Numbered from the stretch's first letter, positions 15,497 to 45,767 are shown. The stretch: DNA of 64,000 bases from Calditrichales bacterium (GCA_965267575.1 OZ254086.1:320001-384000); one strand, 5' to 3'. Numbers and translations are program-made. The notes: generated by a model not told the origin, from the sequence alone.

Positions 15497-15518
15497 AGGA
15501 AAAAAAGACAAGACAGCA

Positions 15519-15707
15519 GGATGGGCAGGATTTATTATATGGCAAATTCGGCGCGAAATCATGTCCCCCTTAGAAAAGGGGGCAAGGGGGTTGTCCTTCA
15601 CCTATAATGGCAAAAGCCGCATTTACAACCCCTCAATCCCCTTTGTTAAGGGGAAAGCAGGTACTCAGGTTATTTATAAAACTTAATTTCTTTTATCCTG
15701 CCCATCC
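15519..15707. repeat. Nested miniature inverted-repeat elements
   Basis: Outer perfect 13-bp IR GGATGGGCAGGAT (15519-15531) / ATCCTGCCCATCC (15695-15707). Inner imperfect ~30-bp IR (15564-15594 / 15625-15654), each arm with a CCCCTT-Nn-AAGGGG hairpin. Confidence 0.75.
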
Positions 15708-15728
15708 CGTTAATCCTGTCAAAACATA

Positions 15729-23915: not shown

Positions 23916-23926
23916 ATTCCCTTCCA

Positions 23927-28641: not shown

Positions 28642-31600
28642 TTACTTAATAAAAAGCATCTTTTTCGTAAACACCCTTTCGCCTCCGCTGTTCAGTACAG
28701 CGGTCATCCTGTAAATATAGAACCCGCTGGACAGCACAACGCCATTTCCGTTCTGTGCCTGCCAGTCGATCTTATATGTACCCGGTGCGTGATTCTCGTT
28801 TTTCATCAGTGTAACTACTTTCTGCCCCAGCGTGTTGAATACTTCCAGGGTCAGTTCGGCAGTTTCCGCCACGCTGTATTCAATGCGCGTAGACGGGTTA
28901 AACGGATTGGGATAATTCTGAGCCAGGCTGAATTTGCGCGGAACAGCATCGGCAAAATCTTCCAGATCAGACACGACGTCTTCGCTAACATGCAGCGAGA
29001 TGTCGTCTATGTTCATCCCGGATTTATCTCCGCTTGCATCCGTGATCATTCGGAAGCGAAAGGTGAAGGTGCTGTTGCCGGCATACTCATTCAGATAAAC
29101 CGTTTCTTTTTTGAAACGAGGCAGTTCCGTACCGGTATAAGACTTTATTTGCTTCCACGTTTCACCTTCATCAACAGACACCTCGAGGAGGCAGCTGTCT
29201 TTATTCTCTTCGATATTATAACGCACATAATACTCCAGCCACATCGACTTATACGGCTCAAGATCAAAGTTATATTCGTATGTCAACGGGTTATTGGCGT
29301 TATTTTCGTAGTTGCCGGACGGACTGTCATCGATGGACGCGTCGCCGCTATTTTTGAGGCCGGAAAGTCCCCAACCCTGTCCGAGGTCCCACTTGAACGT
29401 CCCGGTTTCAAAACCATCAACAACTTCAACGGTATCGATCATAAAAGAGAAAGTGTCTGAAAGAGTCGTGTTTGACATGCTGGAAGAATCTGCCACGCTA
29501 AAGAAATAAGACACCTTATCACCTTTGTCCAGCAGATTTTCGCCCGAGGCATATTCAAAACTTCCGGCATAATTGTCATCGCCCTCCGGGTTTAGCACAA
29601 CGGGCATAAAAGCGCCGTCATTTACACTGTAATTGATTGTAACGTCGTCACTGCGAATACCAATGTTATCCTGTGCTTTTACCCGGAATTGGTAGCCTTC
29701 AGGGCGCTGGCGGTTCACCGTGTTCCAATACGGTTCGCTCAAAACGGTTAACGAAGGCGGCACGGCATCCGCTCCGCTGTAGAAAGAGACGGTGCCGAAA
29801 GGTGCGGCAGAACCGTCGGCCAGCAGAGCCTGGATGAAATAGTATATTCTCTGCTCATCCTCGCGCGCCGGAATCTGTCCGGTGTAGGTATCGGTTTCGA
29901 CGCCCGGCTCCATCGTCACCGGCTGGAAAGGATGGAGGCTATCGCTGTTCCAGTATAGCGTAACGCCGGCCAGATCGCTTTCGCTGCTAACGGTAACGTT
30001 TACATCAATTGGATCAAGACTCTCTGTATCCGTAAGCGTTTCATGCTGTACGTTAAGGCCGATAAGCCAGGCAAGTGTGCGCTCCGCCAGAACTTTGCGC
30101 GGATCATCTTCCACGACTGATTCCAGGCCGCCAAAGGCGAAATAAACCAACTTATATTCGCCATCATAACGAACGGCGCCGCTCCGGCCATTACCATAAC
30201 GCAGCAGGGATTCTGATCCGTCACGCGGGATAACTTCATCCGGATATTGTTGGTCACCGGCCCGCAGATTCAGGAAAACGCTAAATTCAAGACCATCTCC
30301 AATTGGGTCACCTTCAACGCCTGTTAAGGTATTAAATGAAGAAACGTCAGCCTGGTAATCGGCTTTAAGATAGTTCTGGTAAAATGTTCTGGACGCTCCA
30401 CCGGATTCCTGGAATTCACCGCCGCCATCATCGGCGAGGTCCCAACCGATATCCTGGCCGGATATAAAAAGACGTCCACCGGCATCAAGGTAGTTGGAAA
30501 TCAATGTACGGTCCAGGCCATTAAGCGAAGGGAATGTCCATTCGCAGCTCCAGATAACAGCCGCAAATCGTTGCATTTCGCTTAAAGACAATGTGTCCAA
30601 GGACGTCTTGTTAATAAGCTTGTACGCCACATTGCCTTGTTGTAAAAAGTCTGTATAAAAACTCAGATTGCTATTCGCAATAGGGTCGCCTTCATGGTCT
30701 GCCACAACCAACACAGACGGTGAAACTGCAAAATCAAACATTATTGGTTGATTATACCCGTTGCCGTCTGAAAAAGTAACTTCAAGCTTTGTGTTGTAAG
30801 CATAGGCAGACTCATCCGCGGAAATAGTAAAATCCACAGATGTCGTATTGTTTTCCTGGTTTAAAATACCACCAACGGACGTGATCATATCCGTATTATC
30901 GTCAAGGTTAATGGGCCAATTTTCGGTCGTATTCAGGGTTGCGATAACGTTCTCCGCGTCAGCCCAGTTATTTTTCAAATAGACGCGCAGGATTGCGGTT
31001 TCACCTGGATCCAGTTTGCCGTTGTCTAAAGTTTTTCCAGCCAAATCAGTGTCAATAACACTGATGCTGTCAATGACAAATTCCGGATAACTCTGCACTG
31101 TTTCGGTTACTGCCCGGAAAGCATTTACGCGACCGGTGCCCAGTTTCTCGCGATACTGGAAATTAATACCATCTATATCATCGGCCGTTTTGCGCACTTG
31201 ATCAAACAATTCGATCACACCCAGCTCTGGCATGTGCGCCTTGACCAATCCCGCCACACTGGCCACCAGCGGTGCAGCCATGGAAGTACCCTGAAATTCT
31301 ACATACTTGTTATCGCTGTAAAAATCCGAAGGATGTACTACACTGCTCAAAATTCCTTCCTGATTCCCGTTTTGAAAATCGCCGCCGGGAGCCGATACGG
31401 TTACAAAATCTCCATATGTTGAATAATATGCCTTCTTATCTTCATTGCTTAGCGAAGCGACCGTCATAACCCACGGTTGTATGCCAAGGGCGCTCGGATT
31501 TTCATTATCACCGTTCCCAGCCGACTCAACAATAAGGACGCCTTTCAGAAAGGCATAAAAGGCCGCGTCAACGATTGCCCTGCCGGAATTGCCGGAGCTT

Positions 31601-32496
31601 TGGTTTGTAATATCGGCGCCATTGTCGGCCGCATAAACGTAAGCCTCGGCGGCAAAATCGCTTCTTACAAAACCAGTGCCCCCGGAAGAACGCCAGCCAA
31701 TGCGCAAAGGCATAACCCGCGCACCGGAAGAAACGGAAGCAATACCAAGATTGTTATTGGTATGTCCCGCGGCAATACCGGCCACATGCGTACCATGACC
31801 GCCAAAATCCATGGGGTCATTGTCCTGCTCATCAGCATCTTCCTTCGGATCTGCGCCGCTAATACCACGCACAAAGTCCCAGCCTCGAATATCATCAACG
31901 AAACCGTTTTCATCATCATCAATGCCGTTCCCGGCGATTTCATCATCGTTTACCCAAATGACGCCGCTCAAATCTTCATGGTCCCAATCGACCCCGGAAT
32001 CAATTATGCCGATTACCACATCCGACGAGCCGAAACCGCTATCCCAGGCTTCTGGCGCTTTTACCTGTGGCAGGTGAAACAGCGAAGAATATCGCGTATC
32101 GTTCGGCTCGGCATCGAATTCGTCAATGTAAACAGGTTCCGCATATTCAACATCAGGCCGCTTGTTCAAATCATTTACGATTCTTTCAATATCCTCAGTC
32201 TCAGAGACAGTCATCACTTTTACATTTTCGAGGTTAAGACGAAAAGCCAGCTCTTTATCTTTAACATCCTTAAATACTTGTTCCGTTTGCTGTACGCCAT
32301 ATTGTGCCTGAACTTCACTCTGGGCCTGATTGTTACTTTTCTGCAGAAAATGGTCTCGCTTAAATTTTACAATAAATTTGCCCGGCACGTACTTCTTACC
32401 GTCTGCCGTAACACCCGCATCTGAGTTTTGTGCGGAAGCACCAAAAACAAACAAAGGCAGCATTAAAACGATAAAGTAAAGAACTAACTTTCTCAT
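28642..32496 (-). CDS. Secreted S8 (subtilisin-like) serine protease, multidomain, with sorting tail
   Basis: Catalytic triad motifs [31 protein letters not shown] tail. Start moved to MRKLVLY at 32496 after AAGGAG. Confidence 0.93.
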   Translation of the reverse strand: MRKLVLYFIVLMLPLFVFGASAQNSDAGVTADGKKYVPGKFIVKFKRDHFLQKSNNQAQSEVQAQYGVQQTEQVFKDVKDKELAFRLNLENVKVMTVSETEDIERIVNDLNKRPDVEYAEPVYIDEFDAEPNDTRYSSLFHLPQVKAPEAWDSGFGSSDVVIGIIDSGVDWDHEDLSGVIWVNDDEIAGNGIDDDENGFVDDIRGWDFVRGISGADPKEDADEQDNDPMDFGGHGTHVAGIAAGHTNNNLGIASVSSGARVMPLRIGWRSSGGTGFVRSDFAAEAYVYAADNGADITNQSSGNSGRAIVDAAFYAFLKGVLIVESAGNGDNENPSALGIQPWVMTVASLSNEDKKAYYSTYGDFVTVSAPGGDFQNGNQEGILSSVVHPSDFYSDNKYVEFQGTSMAAPLVASVAGLVKAHMPELGVIELFDQVRKTADDIDGINFQYREKLGTGRVNAFRAVTETVQSYPEFVIDSISVIDTDLAGKTLDNGKLDPGETAILRVYLKNNWADAENVIATLNTTENWPINLDDNTDMITSVGGILNQENNTTSVDFTISADESAYAYNTKLEVTFSDGNGYNQPIMFDFAVSPSVLVVADHEGDPIANSNLSFYTDFLQQGNVAYKLINKTSLDTLSLSEMQRFAAVIWSCEWTFPSLNGLDRTLISNYLDAGGRLFISGQDIGWDLADDGGGEFQESGGASRTFYQNYLKADYQADVSSFNTLTGVEGDPIGDGLEFSVFLNLRAGDQQYPDEVIPRDGSESLLRYGNGRSGAVRYDGEYKLVYFAFGGLESVVEDDPRKVLAERTLAWLIGLNVQHETLTDTESLDPIDVNVTVSSESDLAGVTLYWNSDSLHPFQPVTMEPGVETDTYTGQIPAREDEQRIYYFIQALLADGSAAPFGTVSFYSGADAVPPSLTVLSEPYWNTVNRQRPEGYQFRVKAQDNIGIRSDDVTINYSVNDGAFMPVVLNPEGDDNYAGSFEYASGENLLDKGDKVSYFFSVADSSSMSNTTLSDTFSFMIDTVEVVDGFETGTFKWDLGQGWGLSGLKNSGDASIDDSPSGNYENNANNPLTYEYNFDLEPYKSMWLEYYVRYNIEENKDSCLLEVSVDEGETWKQIKSYTGTELPRFKKETVYLNEYAGNSTFTFRFRMITDASGDKSGMNIDDISLHVSEDVVSDLEDFADAVPRKFSLAQNYPNPFNPSTRIEYSVAETAELTLEVFNTLGQKVVTLMKNENHAPGTYKIDWQAQNGNGVVLSSGFYIYRMTAVLNSGGERVFTKKMLFIK

Positions 32497-32506
32497 AAGG
32501 GACTCC

Positions 32507-33868
32507 TTATCTATGAACCTGAATTTTTTCTTCCCACGAGGGATCCTGTAATTCACCTATCTTTGTTGAGTGCAGAAGTGTCATTTCGGAGTAGCTATAT
32601 AGTTCGGCAAATACAAAAATAACACCGCCTTCGATATTGAAATAATTCCATATCTCATATGGCTTTCTAAATGAACGATTGGGATATCTTTCAACTTCAT
32701 TGGGCTCACCATAGATGCAAAAAACGCGTCCACGATCTGTTTGCCAACCCTCTTTACCCATGGTGTTAAACCGTTTATTAGCGATTTCTATTCTCTGAAA
32801 ATATTCATATTTAAACCTGTTAATCGCAGGATCGCCGTCATTATCTCTTCTTTTCCAGAATTCGTCTAGAAAAGATCGCTTAGCCTCGACGCCTTGCAAT
32901 CCTTTCCACACTGAAATTTCAGCAGAAGTGGCGATATAAACGCACATACTAAAAACTTCATCAAGCTGGTTTTCCGTCATTTGTGAATATTCAGAATGGA
33001 AGGCGTATTTTTGTTGGTTTCCCGTCGTGTCAACAACGCCGGGATTATAGATGGTAAAACGCTTAAAGCTCGTAGCCTGTTTGTTTGCTTCTTCGTCTTT
33101 TAACGATATCTTCATTTGGTAGCTGCCGGTTTCAAAACCGGAAACGTTAATGGCCTGCACAAACGGAACGGCCGTCAGTTTTGATGACACCTTTCTTTCG
33201 CGTTTGTAAACACTTATCCCAAACTGATTTTCAATACTGTAGCCGACCGTAAGATACTCGGATTTGCTGCCGCGACTGAGGTTATAAAGCTCCGTATAAA
33301 AATAGAGGACAGGCAGGTCCTGCCCGTAAATACCACTGGTATTGGGAACTACTTCATAATTGTTTTTACTAAAGATCGTTTTACTGGCTGGATTGGATTT
33401 GTCCAGGGATGAGGCAAATTGAATGTCACTTACAGAAAAGAGCTTTTCGTTAAGACCATCGATATTAAATACAAAAGAAATACTATCTGTTGCCCCTTTT
33501 GAATTTAAGTCTTCCGCCCTGAGCTCACAGATATACTGCCCTTCGGGAAAAGAAAACTTCAGAATCCCGGTTAGAGCATCGCTTTCATTCTTCGACTGTG
33601 AAAAAACATATTTTTTATTAAGAAGAGCGATTTTGTCATTTCTGGAAAAAAACTTTACCAGAAGACCACCCTCAATAAGTGTATCATTTTCGGAAATTTC
33701 GGAAGTCATTCCTTCATGGTAAAACGTAAAGTATAATTCCAGTCTGCCGGTCGAATCACTCTCCCCAAAGCGGGCAGCATCAAAATCCGCATCAAAATTC
33801 TGAGCGCTAAGCTGATGCGCAAACAATGATAGCATGCAAGCTATTATACAATAAGACAGTTTATTCAT
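32507..33868 (-). CDS. GWxTD domain-containing exported protein
   Basis: Signal peptide; FWKRRD, RIEIANKRF, EGWQTDRGRVFCIYGEP, YEIWNY. Start moved to ATG 33868, downstream of the terminator hairpin. Confidence 0.9.
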   Translation of the reverse strand: MNKLSYCIIACMLSLFAHQLSAQNFDADFDAARFGESDSTGRLELYFTFYHEGMTSEISENDTLIEGGLLVKFFSRNDKIALLNKKYVFSQSKNESDALTGILKFSFPEGQYICELRAEDLNSKGATDSISFVFNIDGLNEKLFSVSDIQFASSLDKSNPASKTIFSKNNYEVVPNTSGIYGQDLPVLYFYTELYNLSRGSKSEYLTVGYSIENQFGISVYKRERKVSSKLTAVPFVQAINVSGFETGSYQMKISLKDEEANKQATSFKRFTIYNPGVVDTTGNQQKYAFHSEYSQMTENQLDEVFSMCVYIATSAEISVWKGLQGVEAKRSFLDEFWKRRDNDGDPAINRFKYEYFQRIEIANKRFNTMGKEGWQTDRGRVFCIYGEPNEVERYPNRSFRKPYEIWNYFNIEGGVIFVFAELYSYSEMTLLHSTKIGELQDPSWEEKIQVHR

Positions 33869-33892
33869 CGTGCTTTCGTTAAAGTAATCCCT

Positions 33893-33924
33893 AAAAAAAA
33901 ATAGCCCCACGTGGGGGCTATTTT
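33893..33924 (-). terminator. Rho-independent terminator between the PorV-family gene and the GWxTD gene
   Basis: Minus strand AAAATAGCCCC-CACGT-GGGGCTATTTTTTTTT. Confidence 0.85.
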
Positions 33925-33940
33925 CAATATCACCAATAGA

Positions 33941-34966
33941 TTAATATGATAATTTCAACGAAAAGATGTTGTTATTATCAAAATAATCCGTAACCTGGCG
34001 GAAGGCGTAATCGATATAAAGATTGAAATCGCCTATACCGTATTTAATACCGGCACCGGCCGAGAAACCGTAAATACTTTCTGCATCAAGATCGGTAACC
34101 GTATTGTAACCGGCTCTTAAAAAGACCATATCATTATAGCCAAATTCTAAGCCACCCAGAATCTCATCATAATAATCATTATTATTTGAAAACGCTGCGT
34201 TTGCCCGTACGTTGGCTACTTCAGACAGGTCATACTTATAGCTAAGGCCGAATCCAAACACGGACGGTATCTCAGAGTCTTGTGCTATTGCACGGAAATA
34301 ACCATTCTCCGCATTAGGTCCCGCGTTGGGTATGCGAGCTTCCCTTTCAAGGTTGCGGCCGTCATACTGAAGCTTGGTACCAACGTTTTTCATGGCTACG
34401 CCAAAACGGAAATTCTCGTTAAAGATATACTGAACCCCAAAATCGATGGCCATTGCCGTACCGCCTGTCTGCATGATTTCTTCACTGACATACTTACCGG
34501 TAACACCAGCGATAATCCTGTCAGTAAGGAATCTTGAGTAGGTCAAACCAACAACAAAAAACGTTGGTGAATATGTACGGCCTGTTCCATCGGGCTGATC
34601 AACGGTCGTTTCTTCAATATCTCCGAAGTCGAGACTTTGGATATGAAAACCGAATGTTCCTAATCCCGTTGAAGCAAGTGTAGCACCCAGGTAGTTTTGC
34701 TTAATGTCCGCAATATACGCGGTATTACTAAACATCACTTCAGAGTTGGTAGAAGCTGCAATACCCGCGGGATTCCAGTGAATGGCCTCAACACCTTGTG
34801 CAGAGGCTATAGCGCTGTTACCCATAGAGATAGAACGGGCGCCAATTGGCAAAAGCAACTGGGTCGCCGCGGTCGTACCAACGCGGTCAATGTCTCCGGC
34901 ATGGCCAACAGCTATCATTAAAAATGATAACGAAAGGCACGCCAATACTTTTTTATACTTTTTCAT
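33941..34966 (-). CDS. PorV/PorQ-family outer-membrane beta-barrel protein
   Basis: GTTAATQLLLPIGARSISMG, HWNPAGIA, FLRAGY, GFSAGAG, IDYAF, terminal SLKLSY. Likely start MKKYKK at 34966. Confidence 0.85.
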   Translation of the reverse strand: MKKYKKVLACLSLSFLMIAVGHAGDIDRVGTTAATQLLLPIGARSISMGNSAIASAQGVEAIHWNPAGIAASTNSEVMFSNTAYIADIKQNYLGATLASTGLGTFGFHIQSLDFGDIEETTVDQPDGTGRTYSPTFFVVGLTYSRFLTDRIIAGVTGKYVSEEIMQTGGTAMAIDFGVQYIFNENFRFGVAMKNVGTKLQYDGRNLEREARIPNAGPNAENGYFRAIAQDSEIPSVFGFGLSYKYDLSEVANVRANAAFSNNNDYYDEILGGLEFGYNDMVFLRAGYNTVTDLDAESIYGFSAGAGIKYGIGDFNLYIDYAFRQVTDYFDNNNIFSLKLSY

Positions 34967-35007
34967 AGTCTTTCCCTCACATATATGACTTATGTAGATG
35001 TTCATGA

Positions 35008-38000
35008 TTAGTAACGATCGATTCGTTCTTCTCTTTGAACAATACCGAACTTAAGAACCTTGTTACCTACTCCCGGTACTTCAATATGCGCAATATACAT
35101 GCCCGACGATACTTTCAGTCCGGCTTCATTGCGAAGATCCCAGGAGACCTCATTACGTTCACCGTTTTTCTTGATCGTTTTAACCAACTGACCGGCCAGG
35201 TTAAATATCCGGATCGTGGCGACCTGATCAATATGAGTGAATTTGATTACAGGTGTGTCATAGCTCGATTCATAAGAACTGTATGCGAAATAAGGATTAG
35301 GAACTACTCGAGCGCTCTCAAGAACATCTTTTCTTTGCTGAACCGACAATTCTTCGCCAAGGACAGCAGATGAAAAGCTGAATACATCAGCATCTGAATT
35401 AACGAAAGTAGGAGTAATCGTTAATTCGTTTACGTTCGTTTGTGGTTCCTTACCCTCTGCAGCTACAAGGTTAAGAGCAAGATAGGCATCGTTAATACCA
35501 TTGCTTGCGTAATCAATAGTCGTATCATAGCTGGTGGTCGTTAAAAGCATTACAGTATTATTACCGGAAGAGAAAGGTATATCTCCCCTGATAGAGTTGA
35601 AAATGATATTCAACTTGCGAGGATTGTCCGGATCAGATATGTCAAAAGCGCTGACAGGAATCTGAGCAATATCCTGGAATCTGTTATAGTTCGGAGAAGC
35701 AGACCTATACCAGAATCCTTTGGATGTTAACGAGGTGTCGATAACAACCCGTACTGGGAAATAATCGTCACGCATGACAGAGTCTGCCAGATCAGGAAAG
35801 GCATATTTGGCATAGTTTACGCCACCATTAAAGGTTTTAAACTCACCAAGCGGACTTGTATCAGCCCCACGACCTTCAACCCAAACCGAGTCTGCTGCAG
35901 AGGCTTCAACATTTTTGATGCTGTCTATCTGGTTATAAACGCGAACAGACATTCCATCAACGATTGGGAAGTTCCACTCATCACCTTCCGTACCTTGTAC
36001 AAAGATGCTGTCGAGAACAACCATATTGTCCGTGGTATTTGTAATTTTCCAGAATTCGCCGTTACCGAAGAATGAAATTTCATAATTATCACCGGTTAGC
36101 GCTTCATGGTCGACAACAGATACCTGAACAAATCCTTCACTATTACCGGAAGGATGATCTATACCAGCCTGACTGCTATTGATATCGCGGAAAGGCTTGA
36201 ACGTTGACCCACCAGGTCTTGCGGTGAAGAACCCGGAAGTTCTGCTGGGCTGTAAGAAGCCACCTGCTAATGTAAAATACCAATCATTTTCAACACTGGT
36301 AGTAAGCGTATTCTTCGCAACGTGATTTACATCCATACTAAATGGAATAACGGCAAAATAATACTCTTTGCCATTTACCAGCGGACCGCCATCCGGATCA
36401 AATGCGTCTGTTTCAACCGTGTAACGGAAGTTTCGCGAATTTTCGTCTGCATATTTCGCAGGATCCAGATTATTCTGACCTGTCCATACACGAATCCGGC
36501 CCTGCTTGGTATCCTCGTATAAATCACCATACTGGTTCTTAAGGTCAAACTGAGCAATAGCTTTAGCGTTTTCGATACCATTCACCTGGTTACTTACGTT
36601 GGGTGAGTTAAACTGGTAGATCGTAAAACCTTCCCAAACCTGACGATTTAAGAGCTTATCTGTTACATCATAATCAAACCAGGGTTTAAGGTCGAGAACG
36701 ATATCAACTTTATTATCCAGATTACGCACTTCGTAGCTTGCTGCTGGCGGCGGACCTGCAACAAAGAAGTTAGCATTATATGCTGTTTGAGCAATAAGGT
36801 CTTCTTCTTTAAGCAAACTAACACTATTAAGAGCGTTATTACCCTGTGCAACGATATAAGCAATAACGACGTCTTGTGTATCATTAGCAGCCAACTGGAA
36901 AGGGCCGGAGTTGACCATAAAGCGCTTGTCATCAGGCGGATCATCAAGCCAACCGGTACCAGTTACAGGGTCACCGCTGTAAAGAAATCTCGGATCCGTA
37001 TCGGCTGTAGCACCCGTTCCGAAACCAAAGGTTACAGGATTAATACGCGCCCCGGTACGATCAACACCACCAACCTGGTAGTTACGCGCTTCAGAGGCAT
37101 CATTCGGGTCACCAATTGTTGGGTGACTTTGAATGTAATACATGAAAGACGTCAAGCCCAGGTTACGCATATCAGGAAGCGTGTCGATACCCAGGAAAGG
37201 TCCACGATACAAAAAGGCTGTATCACCAGGAGCGTCAACAACAGGACCCTGGAAAAAGTCCAGCCCAAAAGCGGGTGGGTTAGGGCCGTAGTTGCCATCG
37301 TCACCATCATTATAAATAAAGCCAAGGCTAAGCAACGTATCGCAGCCAATTAGATCATCACGATAGTCGCCGAGGTCAGGGTCCATAACGGCGGAAAAGA
37401 TAAAATCTTCGATATCAGTTCCACCCTGGTTAATTAAGCGGTAACGAATAAACACTACATCACCAAGGGCATCACCTCGGTCAAAACCCCAAAGCTGCTG
37501 ATGAACTTCAATACCCATTGGTTGTGTTTGCAACCGCTGACGTTCGTTAGCTGTACTTCCGTCATTAAAAACAGTCCAAATTATCTTATCACCAATCAAG
37601 TCAGGGCGGTCGACATTAGGATCATATTGTCCGTCACCATTCAGATCCTGAAAATCCGCGCCAAGCTCAACGGCGGTCGCCCAGTCCTGATAGGCAGCGC
37701 TGCCAAAATCATCATCCTTAGTAACGATGTAGAATTTCGCCCTGGCATCATCAGGATCCATGCCCCATTTACCAGGCACAAACTCTTCGATCCTTGAAGC
37801 CGAAATGGTCCAAGCGGTACGCAAGTCACCATCAACGTAACCGGACGCACCAATACCACCGGCAAAAAGGAAGGAGAGGCCTGAGCCTTTGGGATAAAAG
37901 CTATCTCCATCCTGGCCCGTGCTTCCTGCGTTATTCAAGGCCAAGTCTACTTTATTCACATCCATCCTTGTCACCAGGCCGATTGTACCTGGCTTTTGCA

Positions 38001-38091
38001 AAGCCACAACGTTATCGATAACAGCATCTGCGCCGAAACCGAAATGCAGCAATAGCAATGTTACCACAATTGATTTTAAAAAGTTTTTCAT
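35008..38091 (-). CDS. Large secreted protein of unknown function with variant sorting tail (TBDR partner)
   Basis: Signal peptide; DPDLGD..DDLIGCD, GPF-L, tail VVPNPY...IRIFNLAGQLV...WDLRNEAG..VSSGMYI. ATG 38091 follows GAGGTGA. Confidence 0.8.
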   Translation of the reverse strand: MKNFLKSIVVTLLLLHFGFGADAVIDNVVALQKPGTIGLVTRMDVNKVDLALNNAGSTGQDGDSFYPKGSGLSFLFAGGIGASGYVDGDLRTAWTISASRIEEFVPGKWGMDPDDARAKFYIVTKDDDFGSAAYQDWATAVELGADFQDLNGDGQYDPNVDRPDLIGDKIIWTVFNDGSTANERQRLQTQPMGIEVHQQLWGFDRGDALGDVVFIRYRLINQGGTDIEDFIFSAVMDPDLGDYRDDLIGCDTLLSLGFIYNDGDDGNYGPNPPAFGLDFFQGPVVDAPGDTAFLYRGPFLGIDTLPDMRNLGLTSFMYYIQSHPTIGDPNDASEARNYQVGGVDRTGARINPVTFGFGTGATADTDPRFLYSGDPVTGTGWLDDPPDDKRFMVNSGPFQLAANDTQDVVIAYIVAQGNNALNSVSLLKEEDLIAQTAYNANFFVAGPPPAASYEVRNLDNKVDIVLDLKPWFDYDVTDKLLNRQVWEGFTIYQFNSPNVSNQVNGIENAKAIAQFDLKNQYGDLYEDTKQGRIRVWTGQNNLDPAKYADENSRNFRYTVETDAFDPDGGPLVNGKEYYFAVIPFSMDVNHVAKNTLTTSVENDWYFTLAGGFLQPSRTSGFFTARPGGSTFKPFRDINSSQAGIDHPSGNSEGFVQVSVVDHEALTGDNYEISFFGNGEFWKITNTTDNMVVLDSIFVQGTEGDEWNFPIVDGMSVRVYNQIDSIKNVEASAADSVWVEGRGADTSPLGEFKTFNGGVNYAKYAFPDLADSVMRDDYFPVRVVIDTSLTSKGFWYRSASPNYNRFQDIAQIPVSAFDISDPDNPRKLNIIFNSIRGDIPFSSGNNTVMLLTTTSYDTTIDYASNGINDAYLALNLVAAEGKEPQTNVNELTITPTFVNSDADVFSFSSAVLGEELSVQQRKDVLESARVVPNPYFAYSSYESSYDTPVIKFTHIDQVATIRIFNLAGQLVKTIKKNGERNEVSWDLRNEAGLKVSSGMYIAHIEVPGVGNKVLKFGIVQREERIDRY

Positions 38092-38121
38092 GAATATCAC
38101 CTCTTCAAGATTCGACTAAAT

Positions 38122-41001
38122 TTAGAACCTTACCTTCATACCCAAACGAATAATCCTGGGAAGGCCGTATTGACCCGGATTTCTTTCGAAAGCCTCGTAG
38201 TCTGAAGCAAAAGCTTCGGGATCGCTGGAGCTGTTGGTAAACGCTTCACCAACCGGTGTATCAAGGAAGCCCGAGTCACCGGCTTTACCAGTAGAAGCGT
38301 AAACCGCGTTGCTGTTTTCCCTGTCAAACAGGTTTTGTACAACGAGATAAGGCTGCAGCGATATACCCTGGGTTATATTAACATTTCTTTCCAGTTTAAG
38401 GTCAACACGAAACACCCCGTCGCCACGCGCGGAATTTATATACTGCGTCAAGTCACCAAGGTTCGAACCGGCACCCGGCAGCACATTTACAAATTCCAGC
38501 GGTGTATAAGGACGTCCACTGTTATATGTAACAAGCATATTCAAACCGGTATTTTCAAAAAGGTAAAAATTGCCGAGTTGAGGACCTTCGTTTTCAAACG
38601 CTCTAATATCGATAGAAGCTGTCAACGTATGACGTTGATCGAAACTCAGAGGAGCGATTGACTTCGGTGTTTCACCGTCCGTATTTCTGAAGGCAGCGGT
38701 AAATGAGCTCGTTTGGCTTGAACCGGTACCCTGAGCATCAGACAGTGTATAATCCAAACGTGCGCTCAATGGTCCTAAGCGACGCAGGTTAAAACTAAAC
38801 GCCAATCCTTTTACCGTACCAAAGTCAGTATTTGCAGTGGTAAGATAAGGAATGGTATCCTGGCCAAGCTTTGTCAGTTCACGAACGATATTGGTAAGGC
38901 CCTTGACGTTCTTATAAAAAGCGGTCACATCGAGGCTGGCAAAATCACCAATCTGGTGCTTTAAGCCAAACTCATACTGTGTTGTAGTTTCAGACTGCAG
39001 ATTTGAATGGTATGCGGTTCTGTTATCATCTGTTTCCAGAGTCTCAAGCGCAAACCAGTCGGTATAAATATCAAATAACCTGGGTGACTGACGGAAAACA
39101 CCATATTGAGCATGGAAAACCGTTTTTTCTGATACGGGAAAAGCAAAGCCAAAACGTGGGCTAAAATACGTTTCTGCCGGAGCGTCTTCCCAATCTTCGG
39201 GATCTAATCTATTCGGATTAGGCCCAAAACGAAACATATCATTCACGTCACGAATCCGCTTTGTGTTCGGGTCAAAATAATCCCAGCGTATACCAAAATT
39301 CAAGATAAAATCTTCAAATTCGTATTTGTCCTGAATATAGAAGGCGGCTGTAATCGGGCTTTTAGGCCCATCATTTCTCCAGAAATTACCATCATAAGCT
39401 GTCAGGCCCTGATCGGAGTCAATCTCATTACCACGATTATCATAACCAAACATAAATGGTCGTACATCATAATAAGGATCAGTCAGCGAAGGAATTTGGA
39501 GCCCAACGGGTGCGATATTATAGTAGCGAACGGAACTTTGCTCCGCCGTAGCGCCCATTTCGATAAAGTGGTTATCCCACTGTTTCGAGAAATTCAGGTC
39601 CAAACCATAGGTCATAACATTGGATTTTGTATAACCGTTATTTACGCGGCCTTGATCATAAAAAACACCAATTTCATCCTGCAGTACTCGATTACCTTGT
39701 CTCCAATAACCATCTCTGGTAAACATGGGATCACTCGGGTCAACGCGGCCACGATAATAATTTAAATTCGCAGTGGTATCACCGTAAGCTTCCAGGTTAT
39801 CAAACCACACGCCGTCACCGGATTCTGTATCCGTATTACGTACTCGGGCCGTGACATCCCAGAAAGTGTTTTCATCAAGGAAATGAGTAAAGCGCAGAGA
39901 ACCGCCTAAAACGTCTTCCGTATTTAGGGTATTATGCTCACTGTTATTTTTGGCATAAGAGTGAACATAACCATTCCACTCGCGCAGAGAACCATTTGCA
40001 CTAAGCGTTACCTTAAAGTCATCATAGTTAGCATCAAATTTACTGCTAAAACGGATAACTTCACCACCGGTATTCGGCAATGACCTCGAGTCAATACCAA
40101 CAGTAGGTATTTTTAACCCGATTGCACGAGGATTCTCGTCACCTGTGGAGATATATTCACCGGATAAGAAGAAGGACAGGTTTTTACTATCCGGCACGAT
40201 AGGTCCGCTTACATAGCCACTAACCGAATTATAGCCGAAATCGTCGGTAAGTTCGGAGCTTACACCTTCAAAACCACCTGTATATTCACGAGCACCGCTC
40301 TTTGTAACAATATTTACGATACCGGACTGAGCACTACCGTATTTGGCAGAAAAACCACCGAGCTGTGTGGATATCTGTTCAATAGCGTTATCAGGAATAG
40401 TACCCTGAGCGCCACCGCCCAGCAAGTCGTTATAAGGAATACCATCAACGACAACCAGCGTCTCATTTCCACGACCGCCACGAACGTTAATTGTGGCGTT
40501 ACCCGTTTCACCACCGCTACCATCCGCCATTACAACACCGGCGTTCAAGGAAACAACCTGATTAACACCTTTTACAGGAATCCGCTCAATTTCCTCAGAG
40601 TCGATTACCTTTACGGTGTTTGTAGCAGATACTTCGAAAAACGGCTTTTCAGCCACAATGACGATTTGCTCGTCCAGTTCCAGCGTACTGGGCGTCATTT
40701 GCATATCAAGACGCTTGGTGATGTCAGGTACAATCCGCACGTTTTCTACCTTCACTTCACCATAACCAATATAGCTAAAGACAACGTTATACGTACCGGC
40801 CGGTACGTGAAGAATAACATACGAACCGTCAAGGTCCGTAGAGGCACCTAGCAGGGTTCCTTCTACAATAACGTTAACACCCGGCAAGGGATCACCAGTT
40901 TCGCTGTCAGTAATCACACCACTGATCTTACCGGTAGTACCGGCAGACGCAAAGAAAACTGACAACAGAACAAGTGACAGTATTTTGACTAACTTAAACA
41001 T
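38122..41001 (-). CDS. TonB-dependent receptor with N-terminal carboxypeptidase-regulatory-like domain (Oar-like)
   Basis: GTTGKISG..TD..TGDPLPGVNV, plug NVRGGR, GGFSAKYG..QSGIVNIVTKSG, SPRFGFAFP, C-terminal RLGMKVRF. Confidence 0.93.
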   Translation of the reverse strand: MFKLVKILSLVLLSVFFASAGTTGKISGVITDSETGDPLPGVNVIVEGTLLGASTDLDGSYVILHVPAGTYNVVFSYIGYGEVKVENVRIVPDITKRLDMQMTPSTLELDEQIVIVAEKPFFEVSATNTVKVIDSEEIERIPVKGVNQVVSLNAGVVMADGSGGETGNATINVRGGRGNETLVVVDGIPYNDLLGGGAQGTIPDNAIEQISTQLGGFSAKYGSAQSGIVNIVTKSGAREYTGGFEGVSSELTDDFGYNSVSGYVSGPIVPDSKNLSFFLSGEYISTGDENPRAIGLKIPTVGIDSRSLPNTGGEVIRFSSKFDANYDDFKVTLSANGSLREWNGYVHSYAKNNSEHNTLNTEDVLGGSLRFTHFLDENTFWDVTARVRNTDTESGDGVWFDNLEAYGDTTANLNYYRGRVDPSDPMFTRDGYWRQGNRVLQDEIGVFYDQGRVNNGYTKSNVMTYGLDLNFSKQWDNHFIEMGATAEQSSVRYYNIAPVGLQIPSLTDPYYDVRPFMFGYDNRGNEIDSDQGLTAYDGNFWRNDGPKSPITAAFYIQDKYEFEDFILNFGIRWDYFDPNTKRIRDVNDMFRFGPNPNRLDPEDWEDAPAETYFSPRFGFAFPVSEKTVFHAQYGVFRQSPRLFDIYTDWFALETLETDDNRTAYHSNLQSETTTQYEFGLKHQIGDFASLDVTAFYKNVKGLTNIVRELTKLGQDTIPYLTTANTDFGTVKGLAFSFNLRRLGPLSARLDYTLSDAQGTGSSQTSSFTAAFRNTDGETPKSIAPLSFDQRHTLTASIDIRAFENEGPQLGNFYLFENTGLNMLVTYNSGRPYTPLEFVNVLPGAGSNLGDLTQYINSARGDGVFRVDLKLERNVNITQGISLQPYLVVQNLFDRENSNAVYASTGKAGDSGFLDTPVGEAFTNSSSDPEAFASDYEAFERNPGQYGLPRIIRLGMKVRF

Positions 41002-41151
41002 GTAAATCCTCCTGAGCCATGTAATGTTAAGTGAGTTAATAACGATTTTTGAAGTTCTTTTCAGGCTTCCCCCTAAACGTAAAAGAAAACTCTCTTAACA
41101 CGAGGCCAATTTATCTAACTGACACTTCTTCTACTTTATAGAATAATAAAA

Positions 41152-41180
41152 TAAAGAGGGGGAAATTCACCCCCTCTTTA
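41152..41180 (-). terminator. Rho-independent terminator after the Asp-box CTD gene
   Basis: Minus strand TAAAGAGGGGG-TGAATTT-CCCCCTCTTTA followed by a T-rich tail. Confidence 0.75.
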
Positions 41181-41192
41181 GTAACAAATCAA

Positions 41193-42965
41193 TTACTTAA
41201 CAAGAAGCATTTTCTTGGTTGCTTCAAAACCATCAGCATTGAGCTTGTAGAAATAAACACCGGAAGCCAGATTTTCAGCGTTGAATTCAACTGTCTGAGG
41301 ACCGGCACTCATTTTCTTACCATCAATCAGCGTGGCTACTTTCTGACCCAGAGCATTGAATACTTCAACATTTACAGTAGCAGCTTTTTTCAAATTAAAA
41401 GCAATTTGCGTACTTGGGTTGAAAGGATTCGGATAATTCTGGAACAGTTCAAAAGAAGTAGCTGCTTGCAGATCGTCTTCGATCGAAGTGGCAATATCTA
41501 CCTGAACGCGCTGATATACCCATGGAATAAGAGGCGTGCTGCCTTCACCGAACAGACTTACGCCCGGTGCATAATCAACGAGATAAGCAACATCAATATA
41601 GTACATGCCATTATCTTCAAGAAGGTTCTGGCTCATCTGCGGATGAACATCGGAGTAACTTGGCATACCCGCTACTTTAAAAGGCTCACCCCAGGTTGCA
41701 CCACCGTCACCGGAAGTTGCACCATAAATATCAGTAGCATACAGACCGGAAACAGAGTCGCCGGTAGCATCATATGCACCAACCAGGGCGTTGCCTTCAA
41801 CTTCAGGCTGCTGCCAGATAGCGGCCAGCTTCATGCCATCTGCACTTACAGCAATGTTCGGATAAGCGCTGCCTATACCGTTGCCAGGATAACCGGCAGA
41901 GATTGCATCGGACAGATCTGCGTTGCGGCCTACATCTGCGCTCGTCAGGTCAATCAACTGACCATCAGCCTCATTCCAGTAAACAACAGGGAAAATCAGG
42001 TGCGTAATTGAGTCAGGATCGGCTGCATCCACAACACCACCATAGCCGTTAAATACCAGGTGTACATTGTCATTGTTGTCAAGAACAAAGTTTACCTGAC
42101 CAAAGTTTTCCGGCCAATGGAAGCTGTTATCTCCCAGAATAGTAGCATCAGCATAAAGCAGCGTGTTTGTCCAGGAAGCGCCGTTGTCCGAAGAACGTGC
42201 CAGCCACATACCTTCCTGATCGCCACCGGCACCCATATAAACAGAAACGAGATTACCGTTGCTGTCATACATGACTACGTTTTCAGCGTTTCCAAGAGCA
42301 AGAGCTGTATCCGGGTTCTGCGGATAATCATTGTGGATCGGGAAAGTAGCACCGAGATCGCTGGAAATAGAAACACCATACGTTCCAGGACCCTGGTCAC
42401 CGGAAACAACTACATTATTTCCACTTGCATCTACACGCGGAAAAACGCCGGCGAGCTCAGCAATGGCTGTTTCAGTAAAGCTATAGAATGCTTCGCCATC
42501 ATCTTTCCAGAATGCGATACCGCCACCGTGCATAACACCGAGTACTTCATCATTCGGGCCATTGGCAACGTTACCCCAACCTGTGGAGCGCTCTTCCGTA
42601 ACCGACTGGTTACCAAAGAAACCAAAAGGCTCCTGGCTGAAGTCAAAGAAGTCATAAGTAACAAAACGGGCTCCACCGGCTTCCTGGCGATTCATGTAAG
42701 TAATATGAACACCATTGGCGCTATTAACGAGCTGACGGCCGGTTACACTGTTTGTTGAATAGTCATAAACAGTTACACCAAGTGTATCACCCGCTTCAGC
42801 AGCTACTTTATTCATTTGCGGCAGCTGATAGATAGGACCCGTGTAGGGCTTTACGTCGATATTTTCGTCACCGGTGATAACGCGAGCTTTTTGCTCGGTA
42901 ATCTTGCCCGCAAACGAAAGCGCGACGAAAGCAAGAAGTAAAGTAGCAGTAAGGAATTTTGACAT
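41193..42965 (-). CDS. Secreted acidic Asp-box (BNR) protein with sorting tail
   Basis: Signal peptide [45 protein letters not shown]...KKMLLVK. ATG 42965 after GGAGG. Confidence 0.85.
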   Translation of the reverse strand: MSKFLTATLLLAFVALSFAGKITEQKARVITGDENIDVKPYTGPIYQLPQMNKVAAEAGDTLGVTVYDYSTNSVTGRQLVNSANGVHITYMNRQEAGGARFVTYDFFDFSQEPFGFFGNQSVTEERSTGWGNVANGPNDEVLGVMHGGGIAFWKDDGEAFYSFTETAIAELAGVFPRVDASGNNVVVSGDQGPGTYGVSISSDLGATFPIHNDYPQNPDTALALGNAENVVMYDSNGNLVSVYMGAGGDQEGMWLARSSDNGASWTNTLLYADATILGDNSFHWPENFGQVNFVLDNNDNVHLVFNGYGGVVDAADPDSITHLIFPVVYWNEADGQLIDLTSADVGRNADLSDAISAGYPGNGIGSAYPNIAVSADGMKLAAIWQQPEVEGNALVGAYDATGDSVSGLYATDIYGATSGDGGATWGEPFKVAGMPSYSDVHPQMSQNLLEDNGMYYIDVAYLVDYAPGVSLFGEGSTPLIPWVYQRVQVDIATSIEDDLQAATSFELFQNYPNPFNPSTQIAFNLKKAATVNVEVFNALGQKVATLIDGKKMSAGPQTVEFNAENLASGVYFYKLNADGFEATKKMLLVK

Positions 42966-43037
42966 AACAAAAACCTCCAAATAGGTAAAACGTGAGAGTT
43001 AAACAGTTAGACGACGAAAGTGCGAGAGTTTCTGCGC

Positions 43038-43050
43038 CACCTCCTTTCTA
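43038..43050 (-). promoter_or_regulatory. Start-less extended Shine-Dalgarno-like element in the 5' UTR
   Basis: Minus strand TAGAAAGGAGGTG about 72 nt upstream of the ATG, with no start codon at normal spacing behind it. Confidence 0.55.
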
Positions 43051-43116
43051 AGTTTCGCTATGTGTAAGTTTTACAAAGATGAACAAATTAAAGGTACTTT
43101 CCCGGGCTCGGTTTCA

Positions 43117-43145
43117 AGTATAATACTTTGATAAAAATGTGTCAA
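43117..43145 (-). promoter_or_regulatory. Near-consensus sigma70 promoter
   Basis: Minus strand TTGACA-N17-TATACT with AT-rich upstream sequence. Confidence 0.75.
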
Positions 43146-43228
43146 GTGTTTTTAATTAAAGCATTTACGAGCAAAATAAGCTGTAGATTTTGGCACTTTA
43201 AAGGTAATCCCTTTCGGGATAAACAGGA

Positions 43229-45427
43229 TTAACGCAACAATAAAAGCCTGCTAAATATAGCCTTTTTACCCGCCTTCACCCTCACAATATAGACACCGGA
43301 AGCAACCCTTTCGCCGAAACTGGATTGACCGTCCCACTGGAAAAGACCGTTTAACGATGAGGACGCGGAATACACCTTGCGGCCGCTTATATCGAAAATA
43401 TCAAGTTCTGCAATACCGCTTCCCAGCGCGGAATATTCTATATTAAACATTGTACCGTTGCCCGCGGGATACGGATTGGGAAAAAGGGCCAGGCTGCTGA
43501 TTGCCGGTTCCTGCGGCACTTTACTGCCACCGGGAGCGCTAACCTCCACGTTCATCATCCAGACACCATTTAAGGTATTGCCACCCGACGTAAACTGCGT
43601 CAATGGCCTGAAACGTCCGTTGGTTATCGTGCCCTTAATAAACGACCGGCCACTGTTCCCATCGTCGCTGTCATAGCCCATTGCGCCTTCGGTTAAGAAT
43701 TCAACGCCGACGGCAATCTCGTCATCCTCATCATAGCTGATTTCAAAATCCTCCAGGTCAAAACGCACCCATCCCGAGGCTACAACGTTGGGCACCGTAA
43801 TCGCGACGGAAGAAGGTACAGAACCGTCACTTAGCCTGGAAGTGTACACATGCAAGCGAATATCCGAGCTTGATGTCGATTTGTAAAATGAAAGAGATTT
43901 CAGAATAACCGCGTTCTCCGGGGCAAAATATTTAATAGCATTTGTGTTATTGTCCGATGTCAGGGAAACGTCTGGTTCACCGCCGGCGTAGCTAAGTTCT
44001 AAAATACGCCCGGCAGGAGATGCATCAAATGTAAGCCCGTAGGATTCATTACGTGATGTGTTGTTAGCGAAGAAAATCTGCCGCGTATGGTGCGTACGGC
44101 CAAAATCATTATCGCTAAACATGGTTGTGGAAAGCGGCACAAGCCTCTCGGACAACCCAAAACCCAGCCTGGACTGCCAGACATTTCCGGCAAAAGAACT
44201 GTTAGAGGAAAAAATAAGCGAGTCGCCGTTCGTCACCTCGATAAAGGTGAGTGAATATGGTTTTACGCTATAGCTCTTGGAAAATGGGAAAGTTGTAACG
44301 CGTGACAGGGGTTGTGGCTGTATATACTGCAAAGCCTCCCAGGTAAAAACATTGCCGTCACTTTCCCCGGGAACATTCGAAGACAATATTTTAAAAAACT
44401 CCCTCACCAGATCTGAAAAGGCTTTATTAACACCCGCGCTCTGCAACCCCTGGTTAAAACCGCTTATGCCCGGCTGCGGTGCCCGGACGATCTGCCGAAC
44501 GGCCTCCAAACCATATTTCTCATATACAAAATATTGCCATAGCGCGACACGCGCATAATGCGGCAATGAATTATCCCGGTCCCAGTCGGTAAGCGAAAGC
44601 GATATGCTTTGCAGATAACGGTCCGGCGAGCGCAACCCATAGCCGCAGAAAAAAGAAGCGACTTCAGAGAAACCCTCATTGGCCCAGGTTTCTTCATCGG
44701 GGTCATTGCGAAATTGGATCAAATGCTGAAATTCGTGGGCAACCGTTCCCAGTACACCGTTTACGTTATAAGTAGGATCGCCGTTCTGGTCTTCGCCGTA
44801 AATACCGGGATAGGTGTCCATGTAAATGATATCGGAGCGGTTAGAGCCCGGCTGCGTGGTCTGGTCGTGTTCATAGAAAAATCCGCCTATGAATGTATCC
44901 CCGGCATCTTCCCAGCCATCCTGGATGTCAGTGAGCAGGAAATTAACATGGCCGTTTCCATCCACGTCCGGTGGAGCACCAAAAATATCTACGCTGATTT
45001 CATAAATGCCCCGCGAAGGATCAAGGCTTGAAGCGGGCGTCGACTCAATGATGGCGTCATATACCTGATCAATAACGGCATCCGTCACATGATTATTGTC
45101 AATCTCCGCCTTCTCCACCCAGATATTTACGCGGCTGTCCTGCTTTTTTAATACAAACACCTTTTCGTCAAAGCTCATCTTATCGGGGTTTACAAGATTC
45201 AGCACCTGGAATGTGCGCTCTTCCAAAAGCCCTGCCGGTTTGCGCAGCGGCGAAAGCTGCAATTGCCTGTAGCGTTCAGGATTGTTTTTGCGCAGGTTTT
45301 CAATGTATGCTTCAAACTGCTCCTGTGTGGGCGTAAGCGGTGTACCGGAAACACGCGGTTCATGAAACAAGTACTGGGCGTTTACGATTTGGGCAGAAAG
45401 GAATAAAAAAAGAAATAGTTGCCGCAT
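43229..45427 (-). CDS. Secreted M30-like (gluzincin) metallopeptidase with sorting tail
   Basis: PPDVDGNG, VAHEFQHLIQ, WANEGFSE; tail FPNPY...IFDISGRKV...ASGVYIVRV. Start moved to MRQLFL at 45427. Confidence 0.8.
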   Translation of the reverse strand: MRQLFLFLFLSAQIVNAQYLFHEPRVSGTPLTPTQEQFEAYIENLRKNNPERYRQLQLSPLRKPAGLLEERTFQVLNLVNPDKMSFDEKVFVLKKQDSRVNIWVEKAEIDNNHVTDAVIDQVYDAIIESTPASSLDPSRGIYEISVDIFGAPPDVDGNGHVNFLLTDIQDGWEDAGDTFIGGFFYEHDQTTQPGSNRSDIIYMDTYPGIYGEDQNGDPTYNVNGVLGTVAHEFQHLIQFRNDPDEETWANEGFSEVASFFCGYGLRSPDRYLQSISLSLTDWDRDNSLPHYARVALWQYFVYEKYGLEAVRQIVRAPQPGISGFNQGLQSAGVNKAFSDLVREFFKILSSNVPGESDGNVFTWEALQYIQPQPLSRVTTFPFSKSYSVKPYSLTFIEVTNGDSLIFSSNSSFAGNVWQSRLGFGLSERLVPLSTTMFSDNDFGRTHHTRQIFFANNTSRNESYGLTFDASPAGRILELSYAGGEPDVSLTSDNNTNAIKYFAPENAVILKSLSFYKSTSSSDIRLHVYTSRLSDGSVPSSVAITVPNVVASGWVRFDLEDFEISYDEDDEIAVGVEFLTEGAMGYDSDDGNSGRSFIKGTITNGRFRPLTQFTSGGNTLNGVWMMNVEVSAPGGSKVPQEPAISSLALFPNPYPAGNGTMFNIEYSALGSGIAELDIFDISGRKVYSASSSLNGLFQWDGQSSFGERVASGVYIVRVKAGKKAIFSRLLLLR

Positions 45428-45428
45428 A

Positions 45429-45767
45429 TTATTTTGCGATATCCGGATAAACAGTTGCCAGCTTATCCAGGTCTTCATCGGAAAGGAAATCGAACTCAAT
45501 GCCTACCTGGTAATCTGTGTCGCTGTTTTTTTTCTGGTTTCGCACTTTGCCGATCGTCTTAACCAGTTCATCACCAACGGCAACCGATAGCTCAATTTTC
45601 AGGCCCGTCTCCATCGGCCTGGATGAACGGATCGCCGTCCCCGTACGGCTGATATCGAGTGTGGTGACCATTCCCTCGTCAAAAACGCGTCCTTCGGCAT
45701 CGTACAAACGGTAGGAAATAAAATTTTCCGTGTCGATTCTTTTTGACTCACGGCCTTCGAATTCCAT
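45429..45767 (-). CDS. Stand-alone PilZ domain protein
   Basis: RESKR (RxxxR) and DISRTG (DxSxxG); YQVGIEF. Confidence 0.85.
   Translation of the reverse strand: MEFEGRESKRIDTENFISYRLYDAEGRVFDEGMVTTLDISRTGTAIRSSRPMETGLKIELSVAVGDELVKTIGKVRNQKKNSDTDYQVGIEFDFLSDEDLDKLATVYPDIAK

Follow-up and report, generated by a model that had tools for sequence, protein, structure and literature searches.

How a TonB-dependent transporter of the outer membrane is supplied with its substrate when no SusD-like lipoprotein accompanies it is the question raised by a minus-strand locus in the genome of Calditrichales bacterium (GCA_965267575.1 OZ254086.1:320001-384000). The window, meaning the whole 64,000-nucleotide stretch that was analysed, covers bases 320001-384000 of a genome that forms one contig of 4.73 Mb, and all positions below are those of the window unless marked as genome positions. 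The names borne by its nearest protein relatives assign the genome to Calditrichota. In this locus, the gene for an Oar-like TonB-dependent transporter (TBDT) is followed by a gene for a large protein with a variant C-terminal domain (CTD) of a type IX secretion system (T9SS), here termed the partner, and by a gene for an outer-membrane barrel of the PorV/PorQ family (Table 1). We are moderately inclined to read this triad as an outer-membrane nutrient capture-and-import module, in which the partner would be docked on the barrel by a retained CTD and would feed the TBDT. Every gene listed in the initial annotation of the region was found at the position given there, as were both of its terminators and its promoter-like site; the gene calls are longest-open reading frame (ORF) approximations.

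The transporter is a TBDT by its plug and barrel domains, both of which score above cut-off (23.9 bits for Plug and 30 bits for OMP_b-brl_4), and TonB is encoded in the genome, which has five TonB_C matches over cut-off. We take the barrel family in question, PF25183 (OMP_b-brl_4), to cover Oar-type barrels. The SusC/RagA family (TIGR04056) does not accommodate the protein: the match reaches 87.8 bits against a cut-off of 368.25 and spans residues 25-238 only, that is, the N-terminal domain and the plug, and a sequence search of the PDB matched the plug region only. Five full-length paralogues with 28-30% identity are encoded in the genome, together with partial matches to the TBDTs of other triads. 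SusD families are absent from the nine locus proteins scanned, the single PF07980 (SusD) match in the whole genome lies at genome position 4696593, away from the locus, and the gene for a SusD/RagB lipoprotein that would adjoin the transporter in a SusC/SusD pair was not found there.

The three genes recur as a set. A tblastn search with the locus proteins, combined with a simple ORF map, located nine tightly packed triads of TBDT, middle protein, and PorV-like barrel in this genome, the middle proteins ranging from 626 to 1205 amino acids (aa) and matching no Pfam family. When the nine triads are compared pair by pair, the identities for TBDT, tail, middle-protein body, and barrel are correlated with one another (Mantel r = 0.74-0.89), and therefore the cassette was duplicated as a unit. 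The neighbours of the triads at several loci are glycan enzymes with ordinary CTDs, including GH16 with malectin, CBM9/CBM11, CBM20, heparinase II/III with a beta-helix protein, and GHL10.

The arrangement extends beyond this genome. A cross-phylum survey, made with one genome per species and with an alignment of the partner family as query, returned 80 loci from Ignavibacteriota, Bacteroidota (including Flavobacteriales and Chitinophagales), Latescibacterota, Zixibacteria, Marinimicrobia/Neomarinimicrobiota, Fidelibacterota, Calditrichia, Chlorobiaceae, and others. Among loci with enough flank to judge, 56 of 61 have a co-oriented TBDT gene as the immediate upstream neighbour, 66 of 73 have a PorV-like gene as the immediate downstream one, and 14 of 60 have a gene for a GWxTD protein within 6 kb downstream. 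Within the phylum, a search at E up to 1e-50 gave matches in 48 of 86 genomes; the best 20 places outside the window, from 20 genomes, matched near the full query, and the triad is present in all 18 orthologous loci that were scored. Related genomes are non-independent samples in these counts. A ninefold arrangement that is also conserved in other phyla is far beyond chance. Gene order in relatives, on which the initial annotation had staked its proposal, is thus conserved.

The middle proteins are united by their tails. Their bodies differ among the nine triads, and the tails share D.I.VVPNPY followed by an insertion of 10-20 residues, whereas ordinary CTDs of the same genome carry another 10-residue sequence there; judged by sequence, the tail is a distinct CTD subtype. 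Five of the nine triad proteins, the partner included, have a tail that NCBIfam matches to the PorZ C-terminus, and this C-terminus was the sole match when a profile of the partner family (A1) was run against all PDB sequences (5m11, E = 3e-4). The modelled CTD of the partner superposes on that of PorZ (5m11) with Z 12.7 and a root-mean-square deviation (rmsd) of 2.1 Å over 93 residues at 22% identity. As a whole protein the partner falls far short of PorZ (NF052228), with 27.3 bits against a cut-off of 260 and a match to the CTD only (residues 922-1006), and a search for type B CTDs at E up to 0.01 gave no PF13585 match in the partner. The possibility of a PorU-like sortase was rejected, in that the PorU match is limited to the CTD and a real PorU is encoded elsewhere in the genome.

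The barrel belongs to the same family as PorV and PorQ and is neither of them by score: it lies below the equivalog cut-offs for PorV (NF033710, 73.1 vs 250 bits) and PorQ (NF033711, 84 vs 220 bits), and its profile matches Flavobacterium johnsoniae PorV (6h3i) at 4e-24. There are 24 PorV/PorQ-family matches in the genome, 17 of them over cut-off. In a tree of 19 of these proteins, the nine triad barrels group with the barrel of a TBDT-barrel pair that has no middle gene (support 84/77), and both the canonical PorV and the PorQ-like protein fall outside this group.

Tail and barrel were linked in genomes other than this one. The profiles of TBDT, barrel, and tail were built from paralogues of the present genome, where a count with the hidden Markov model of the variant CTD is circular, its nine top matches being the training set. 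Three other complete genomes of the phylum, which were not used for the profile, were searched with the nine-tail profile and, separately, with NF033709. A variant tail scoring at least 60 bits is followed by a co-oriented PorV-family gene within 1 kb in 41 of 47 cases, and a weaker tail match in 1 of the 15 entered; in the reverse direction, 42 of the 67 PorV-family genes entered, each over cut-off, are preceded by a variant tail. Together with the synteny, this link bears out the earlier proposal that receptor, variant-CTD protein, and PorV paralogue form a conserved unit without SusD. It also bears on whether the barrel could be a channel of the FadL type that passes a small hydrophobic product and has nothing to do with the tail of the partner, as might be suggested by the weak matches that some barrel paralogues give to Toluene_X and UPF0164; given that the PorV/PorQ family fits far better (170 bits) and that the presence of the barrel tracks the variant tail, we find such a channel barely credible.

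A T9SS for the tailed proteins is indicated by SprA (826.6 bits summed), PorU (845.1 bits), and a canonical PorV encoded just past the end of the window, and about 174 proteins of the genome carry ordinary CTDs according to the ordinary-CTD profile. A PorQ-like gene within the window stands among the housekeeping genes murI, obg, and dprA, and its product is probably the canonical PorQ that belongs to the T9SS attachment complex. Directly 3' of the canonical PorV gene is that of a T9SS-dependent M6-like inactivated metalloprotease (535.7 bits, cut-off 600; 61521-64000 on the minus strand and beyond), after which comes the gene for a 1047-aa TolB-like propeller protein (58381-61524). Outside the window, at genome 405477-416418, the gene for a PorU-like protein of 1664 aa (NF033707, 281.6 bits, cut-off 420) adjoins a PorV-family gene and the gene for a protein of 1637 aa.

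Two kinds of precedent could apply to the triad barrel, PorV being described as a shuttle, and the CTD of PorZ being described as retained and bound to PorQ and that of PorU as staying on PorV (PMC10202324). On the first, the barrel would be a private shuttle or export chaperone leading from the SprA translocon, with the CTD then cleaved and the partner released or linked to lipopolysaccharide, so that no lasting complex would form. The homology of the barrel to PorV and the presence of PorU in the genome agree with this; however, the canonical PorV already serves the ordinary-CTD proteins, it is the retained PorZ CTD, and not ordinary CTDs, that the tails resemble, and a shuttle leaves the strict co-inheritance with a TBDT unexplained. 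We consider a shuttle rather unlikely, and by analogy PorZ-PorQ would be the better precedent for anchoring. Cognate PorV-like barrels have also been suggested to protect CTDs from cleavage (PMC10202324).

The body of the partner points to what might be captured. The protein is organised as a signal peptide, a super-sandwich (~36-445), several beta-sandwiches, the PorZ-like variant CTD (~915-1019), and the terminal QREERIDRY; a Pfam scan returned no domain above cut-off, and a protein-atlas search no named family. In the structure model (predicted local distance difference test, pLDDT, 89.0; predicted template modelling score, pTM, 0.79), the N-domain (~36-445) takes the form of a galactose-mutarotase-like beta super-sandwich. 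A fold search with the model retrieved N-terminal domains of carbohydrate-active enzymes, namely those of dextran dextrinase (Z 19.4, 251 aa aligned, rmsd 3.3 Å), glucodextranase (Z 19.1), and bacterial glucoamylase (Z 18.8), followed by GH94, GH116, and GH65 enzymes and galactose mutarotases (Z 12-18). The modelled fold is thereby typical of carbohydrate enzymes. The same domain occurs without the variant tail: at genome ~577-584 kb (1575-9375, minus strand, within genome 575000-586000), four tandem genes encode proteins of 630-683 aa that have a partner-like N-domain, with 42-54% identity to residues ~2-445 of the partner, and ordinary type A CTDs. Therefore, the same N-domain is deployed in both ordinary-CTD and barrel-linked forms.

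Being a large protein of several beta domains, with a tail of the uncleaved type and a barrel of its own, the partner might instead be an adhesin or surface-layer protein anchored in the manner of SprB/SprF, its TBDT being co-regulated and not fed. There is a precedent in type B CTD proteins with PorP/SprF barrels, the genes of which are clustered and for which anchoring of the uncleaved substrate has been proposed (PMC10202324). In the triads, however, the TBDT sits directly upstream in most of the surveyed loci and shares the history of the cassette, the N-domain has the fold noted above, and the partner lacks any type B CTD match; an adhesin thus appears improbable to us.

A further gene accompanies the triad. 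The Asp-box (BNR-like) protein encoded upstream of the TBDT bears three SxDxGxT(W/F) motifs, matches BNR_2 at E = 0.005 only, and gave a protein-atlas lead to BNR clusters at 0.86; a PDB sequence search with it yielded nothing useful. Of the 14 phylum loci that offer 1.9 kb of flank or more, 13 have its homologue directly 5' of the TBDT gene; within the phylum, this triad subfamily thus has a fourth conserved gene, and the propeller, with its ordinary, cleavable-type CTD, is a conserved accessory of the subfamily. From the modelled fold of the partner and this Asp-box protein, the substrate is probably a glycan or glycoprotein.

We propose the following for the triad. The partner would be exported by the T9SS, and its PorZ-like CTD, not being cut off, would remain docked on the private PorV/PorQ-family barrel, which would tether it to the cell surface next to the TBDT. 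The polymer bound by the N-domain of the partner would most likely be a glycan, or a glycoprotein bound through its glycan part, and the domain would pass fragments of it to the transporter for TonB-driven uptake. The partner would then stand in the functional place of SusD and of the SusE/F-type surface proteins of Bacteroidota, and the triad probably fills the role that SusC/SusD has in Bacteroides. Inferred alike are the retention of the CTD, its docking on the barrel, the contact with the TBDT, the direction of transport, and the substrate.

The direction of transport needs to be weighed against a known case, Oar being required for secretion of the subtilisin-like protease PopC in Myxococcus (PMC6434023). 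The OMP_b-brl_4 match of the TBDT (PF25183, 49.9 bits) and an S8 protease gene within the locus would suit a transporter that works outwards, exporting the partner or the protease. The protease is an S8 peptidase by sequence, with DSGVD, HGTHVAG, and GTSMAAP motifs in addition to its PF00082 match. Yet the partner and the protease both bear T9SS CTDs in a genome that has a T9SS, other triads lie among glycan enzymes as polysaccharide utilisation loci do, and the protease is not kept next to the triad: of the 15 phylum loci that extend 3 kb or more downstream, one has its orthologue there, and the 80 cross-phylum loci include one weak match (L044). Outward transport is, in our judgement, distinctly improbable. 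As judged from synteny, the protease is a lineage-specific neighbour, and proteases were rejected as a defining part of the module. The earlier view that proteases belong to the system and supply it with peptides is not supported either, the conserved fourth gene being the Asp-box propeller and the N-domain fold being like that of carbohydrate enzymes.

The GWxTD gene behaves differently from one lineage to another. Its product has a signal peptide and no CTD, and is modelled (pLDDT 89.4) as two Ig/FnIII-like beta-sandwiches followed by an alpha/beta GWxTD domain (residues 281-437, numbered in the 442-aa form of the protein); matches from a fold search with the whole model cover the two N-terminal sandwiches only, and a PDB sequence search gave nothing useful. 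No paper on GWxTD was found in a full-text literature search, which had subscription journals and supplements outside its scope. Among the 15 phylum loci with at least 3 kb downstream, a single one (L107), from a genome of the same family that also carries the S8 orthologue and an HExxH protein, has the GWxTD gene, and none of the other five GWxTD paralogues in the present genome adjoins a triad. In the class holding the Ignavibacteria loci, a GWxTD orthologue (E up to 1e-50) is encoded in 41 of 61 sampled genomes; upstream DNA was taken for 40 of the 41, and 37 had at least 1.7 kb. A co-oriented PorV-like gene lies in the 3.4 kb 5' of the GWxTD gene in 24 of these 37 Ignavibacteria genomes, and a variant-tail gene precedes the barrel in 22 of the 24. 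Thus, the triad often has the ~450-aa GWxTD subfamily as a fourth neighbour in Ignavibacteria (24/37) and rarely so in Calditrichota (1/15), and the GWxTD link put forward in the initial annotation is genuine but differs between lineages. In the present locus the ATG of the S8 gene lies 10 nucleotides after the GWxTD stop codon, so the two genes are probably co-transcribed; they would form a separate downstream transcription unit, linked to the triad in some lineages only.

Several observations count against the proposed module, the first of them being exceptions to the arrangement itself. At genome ~793-800 kb (2958-9805, minus strand, within genome 790000-802000), three tandem PorZ-tailed paralogues of 949, 669, and 673 aa, full-length or partial and with 41-50 bits to NF052228, have no PorV-family gene within 23 kb. 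A TBDT gene at genome 4387504-4390323 is directly followed by a barrel gene with no middle gene between them. Among the surveyed loci, four (L050, L071, L088, and L095) are without both TBDT and barrel, and L099 is without a barrel, its upstream flank being too short to judge the TBDT; in addition, L039 and L072 lack the barrel only, and in L052 the TBDT is somewhat further off. The T9SS core, which the initial annotation had called for checking, is present as regards SprA, PorU, and PorV, whereas the matches to GldK (89.8 bits) and GldM (69.3 bits) are weak and both below cut-off; the type A CTD scores of the partner are likewise marginal (TIGR04183, 23.5 vs 23 bits; PF18962, 18 vs 27 bits). 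The modelled super-sandwich occurs in non-carbohydrate proteins too and, because the periplasmic domain of YidC matches it (Z 13.1), the fold is not proof of sugar binding; sharing a fold indicates no function by itself. A peptide or glycoprotein substrate is possible, given the proteases that flank this copy. Gene linkage and shared history, finally, do not show binding.

The known systems to which the triad can be compared each share part of its plan. As in SusC/SusD (RagA/RagB) and the utilisomes, a TBDT with a carboxypeptidase-regulatory-like N-domain adjoins the gene for a surface partner, and the pair is multiplied in the genome among secreted polymer-degrading enzymes; unlike them, the triad has a transporter outside SusC/RagA and no SusD, and its partner is a non-lipoprotein of 600-1200 aa of beta domains, a T9SS substrate with a PorV-like barrel of its own. 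As in PorZ-PorQ and PorU-PorV, the partner is a T9SS substrate with a PorZ-like CTD that is encoded with a PorV/PorQ-family barrel, and in those known pairs the CTD is described as retained and barrel-bound (PMC10202324). The body of the partner is unrelated to PorZ and PorU, however, the barrels form a subgroup of their own, and the genome has nine such pairs, every one accompanied by a TBDT, with a function that would not be secretion housekeeping. SprB/SprF offers a substrate gene clustered with that of a private outer-membrane barrel, together with the proposed anchoring of an uncleaved substrate; the partner differs in having no CHU_C/type B CTD, and the triad in having a barrel of the PorV/PorQ and not the PorP/SprF type and in its link to a TBDT. 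Myxococcus xanthus Oar resembles the TBDT in barrel architecture and in the subtilisin-type protease nearby, whereas the protease here is T9SS-tailed and not a conserved neighbour, and evidence for outward transport was not found. [quoted passage not shown]

A wider proposal, which we advance tentatively, is that the triad represents a T9SS-dependent, SusD-independent uptake complex found throughout the Fibrobacterota-Chlorobiota-Bacteroidota (FCB) group, in which a private PorQ-like barrel would permanently hold a glycan-binding protein by its uncleaved PorZ-type tail beside or over an Oar-like TBDT, with a periplasmic GWxTD protein as a lineage-variable fourth component. The subfamily of this locus has an extra 8-9 residues after the CTD, which could lock into the barrel. 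The extra end reads QREERIDRY here and QRE(E/D)(R/K)(I/L)D(R/Q)(F/Y) in the 18 phylum orthologues; a related one, most often with F or Y last, is present in nearly all of the 98 loci read, from several phyla, and the tails of the other eight triads of the genome stop at ...KFA(V/I)IK. The partner family comprises 1758 clusters (50% identity) at E up to 1e-30 and 4752 at E up to 1e-10.

Table 1. Genes and regulatory elements of the triad locus and its surroundings, in window positions unless marked as genome.
Feature	Position	Strand	Evidence or description
PorQ-like gene	22971-23927	-	NF033711 219.5 bits (cut-off 220)
Terminator-like hairpin closing the locus	28638-28610	-	13 pairs, 7 G-C
S8 subtilase with fervidolysin-like prodomain, MAM/reelin-like domain, and type A CTD	28642-32496	-	PF00082 149.5 bits
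GWxTD protein, 453 aa	32507-33868	-	TIGR04514 103.5 bits (cut-off 28)
Terminator-like hairpin and U-run in the barrel/GWxTD gap	33925-33891	-	-19 kcal/mol, z = -3.16
PorV/PorQ-family barrel, 14-strand-type	33941-35005	-	NF033709 170 bits (cut-off 90), positions 1-325 of 326; probable start ATG at 34966
Extra end of the partner	35008-35037	-	QREERIDRY
Partner protein, 1030-aa ORF	35008-38100	-	1027 aa from ATG at 38091; contains VVPNPY, ends REERIDRY
Oar-like TBDT, 959 aa	38122-41001	-	CarbopepD_reg_2 74.1, Plug 53.3, OMP_b-brl_4 49.9 bits
Intrinsic-terminator-like hairpin after the Asp-box gene	41180-41152	-	11 pairs, 6 G-C, then T-run
Asp-box (BNR-like) protein, 595 aa, type A CTD	41193-42980	-	PF18962 49.5 bits; three motifs; probable start ATG at 42965
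Sigma-70-like promoter site	43145-43117	-	TTGACA-17-TATACT, 11/12 positions match
HExxH protein (motif HEFQH), 756 aa, type A CTD	43229-45499	-	NF045524 34.1 bits (cut-off 140), TIGR04183 33.9 bits
Canonical PorV, just past the window end	genome 384494-385585		NF033710 257.3 bits (cut-off 250)

The regulatory elements of the locus differ in how they were recognised. The promoter-like site is the best of 28 in the region, a number that does not exceed the 29.3 expected from shuffles, and the hairpin in the gap between the barrel and GWxTD genes was read from the sequence and folded, not having been reported by the terminator scan. The internal terminators might tune stoichiometry, as the initial annotation suggested. 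The HExxH protein is encoded just beyond the range of the initial annotation; its homologue occupies the same position in L107 only among the 18 phylum loci, and the protein would accordingly be a neighbour kept within the family and outside the core. The G+C content at 32001-44000, the locus itself, is 0.40-0.47, below most of the window. Another stretch, 12001-16000, has a G+C content of 0.37-0.39 in surroundings of ~0.50-0.56 and contains three ORFs (12354-13163, 13335-14447, and 14592-15095) without NCBIfam matches; it may be foreign DNA. Secreted proteases are abundant in the window: besides the S8 and HExxH proteins, two metalloproteases with T9SS tails are encoded side by side at 5758-12060 on the plus strand, one of 917 aa with an M6 domain and one of 1177 aa that is M4 thermolysin-like.

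In the available part of the Caldithrix abyssi genome paper, the receptors mentioned are of the BtuB and thiamine types only (PMC5317091). The full-text literature search, within the scope given above, found no description of the triad. All of its components are of known families and the principle of tethering has precedents; the triad itself is apparently undescribed.

SusC/SusD is the textbook model of polymer uptake for Bacteroidota and their relatives. To our knowledge, Calditrichota, Ignavibacteriota, Marinimicrobia, Zixibacteria, and Latescibacterota, which abound in sediments and soils, possess few SusD genes or none. The partner family that we describe is large and unnamed, and the module could serve to mark utilisation loci outside Bacteroidota for annotation. 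The link to GWxTD is a first lead on that domain and, if the GWxTD protein is a component of the triad, would give it a first functional context. If the proposed function is true, the conserved module would explain how SusD-poor FCB phyla feed on polymers, and would tie the T9SS directly to nutrient import.

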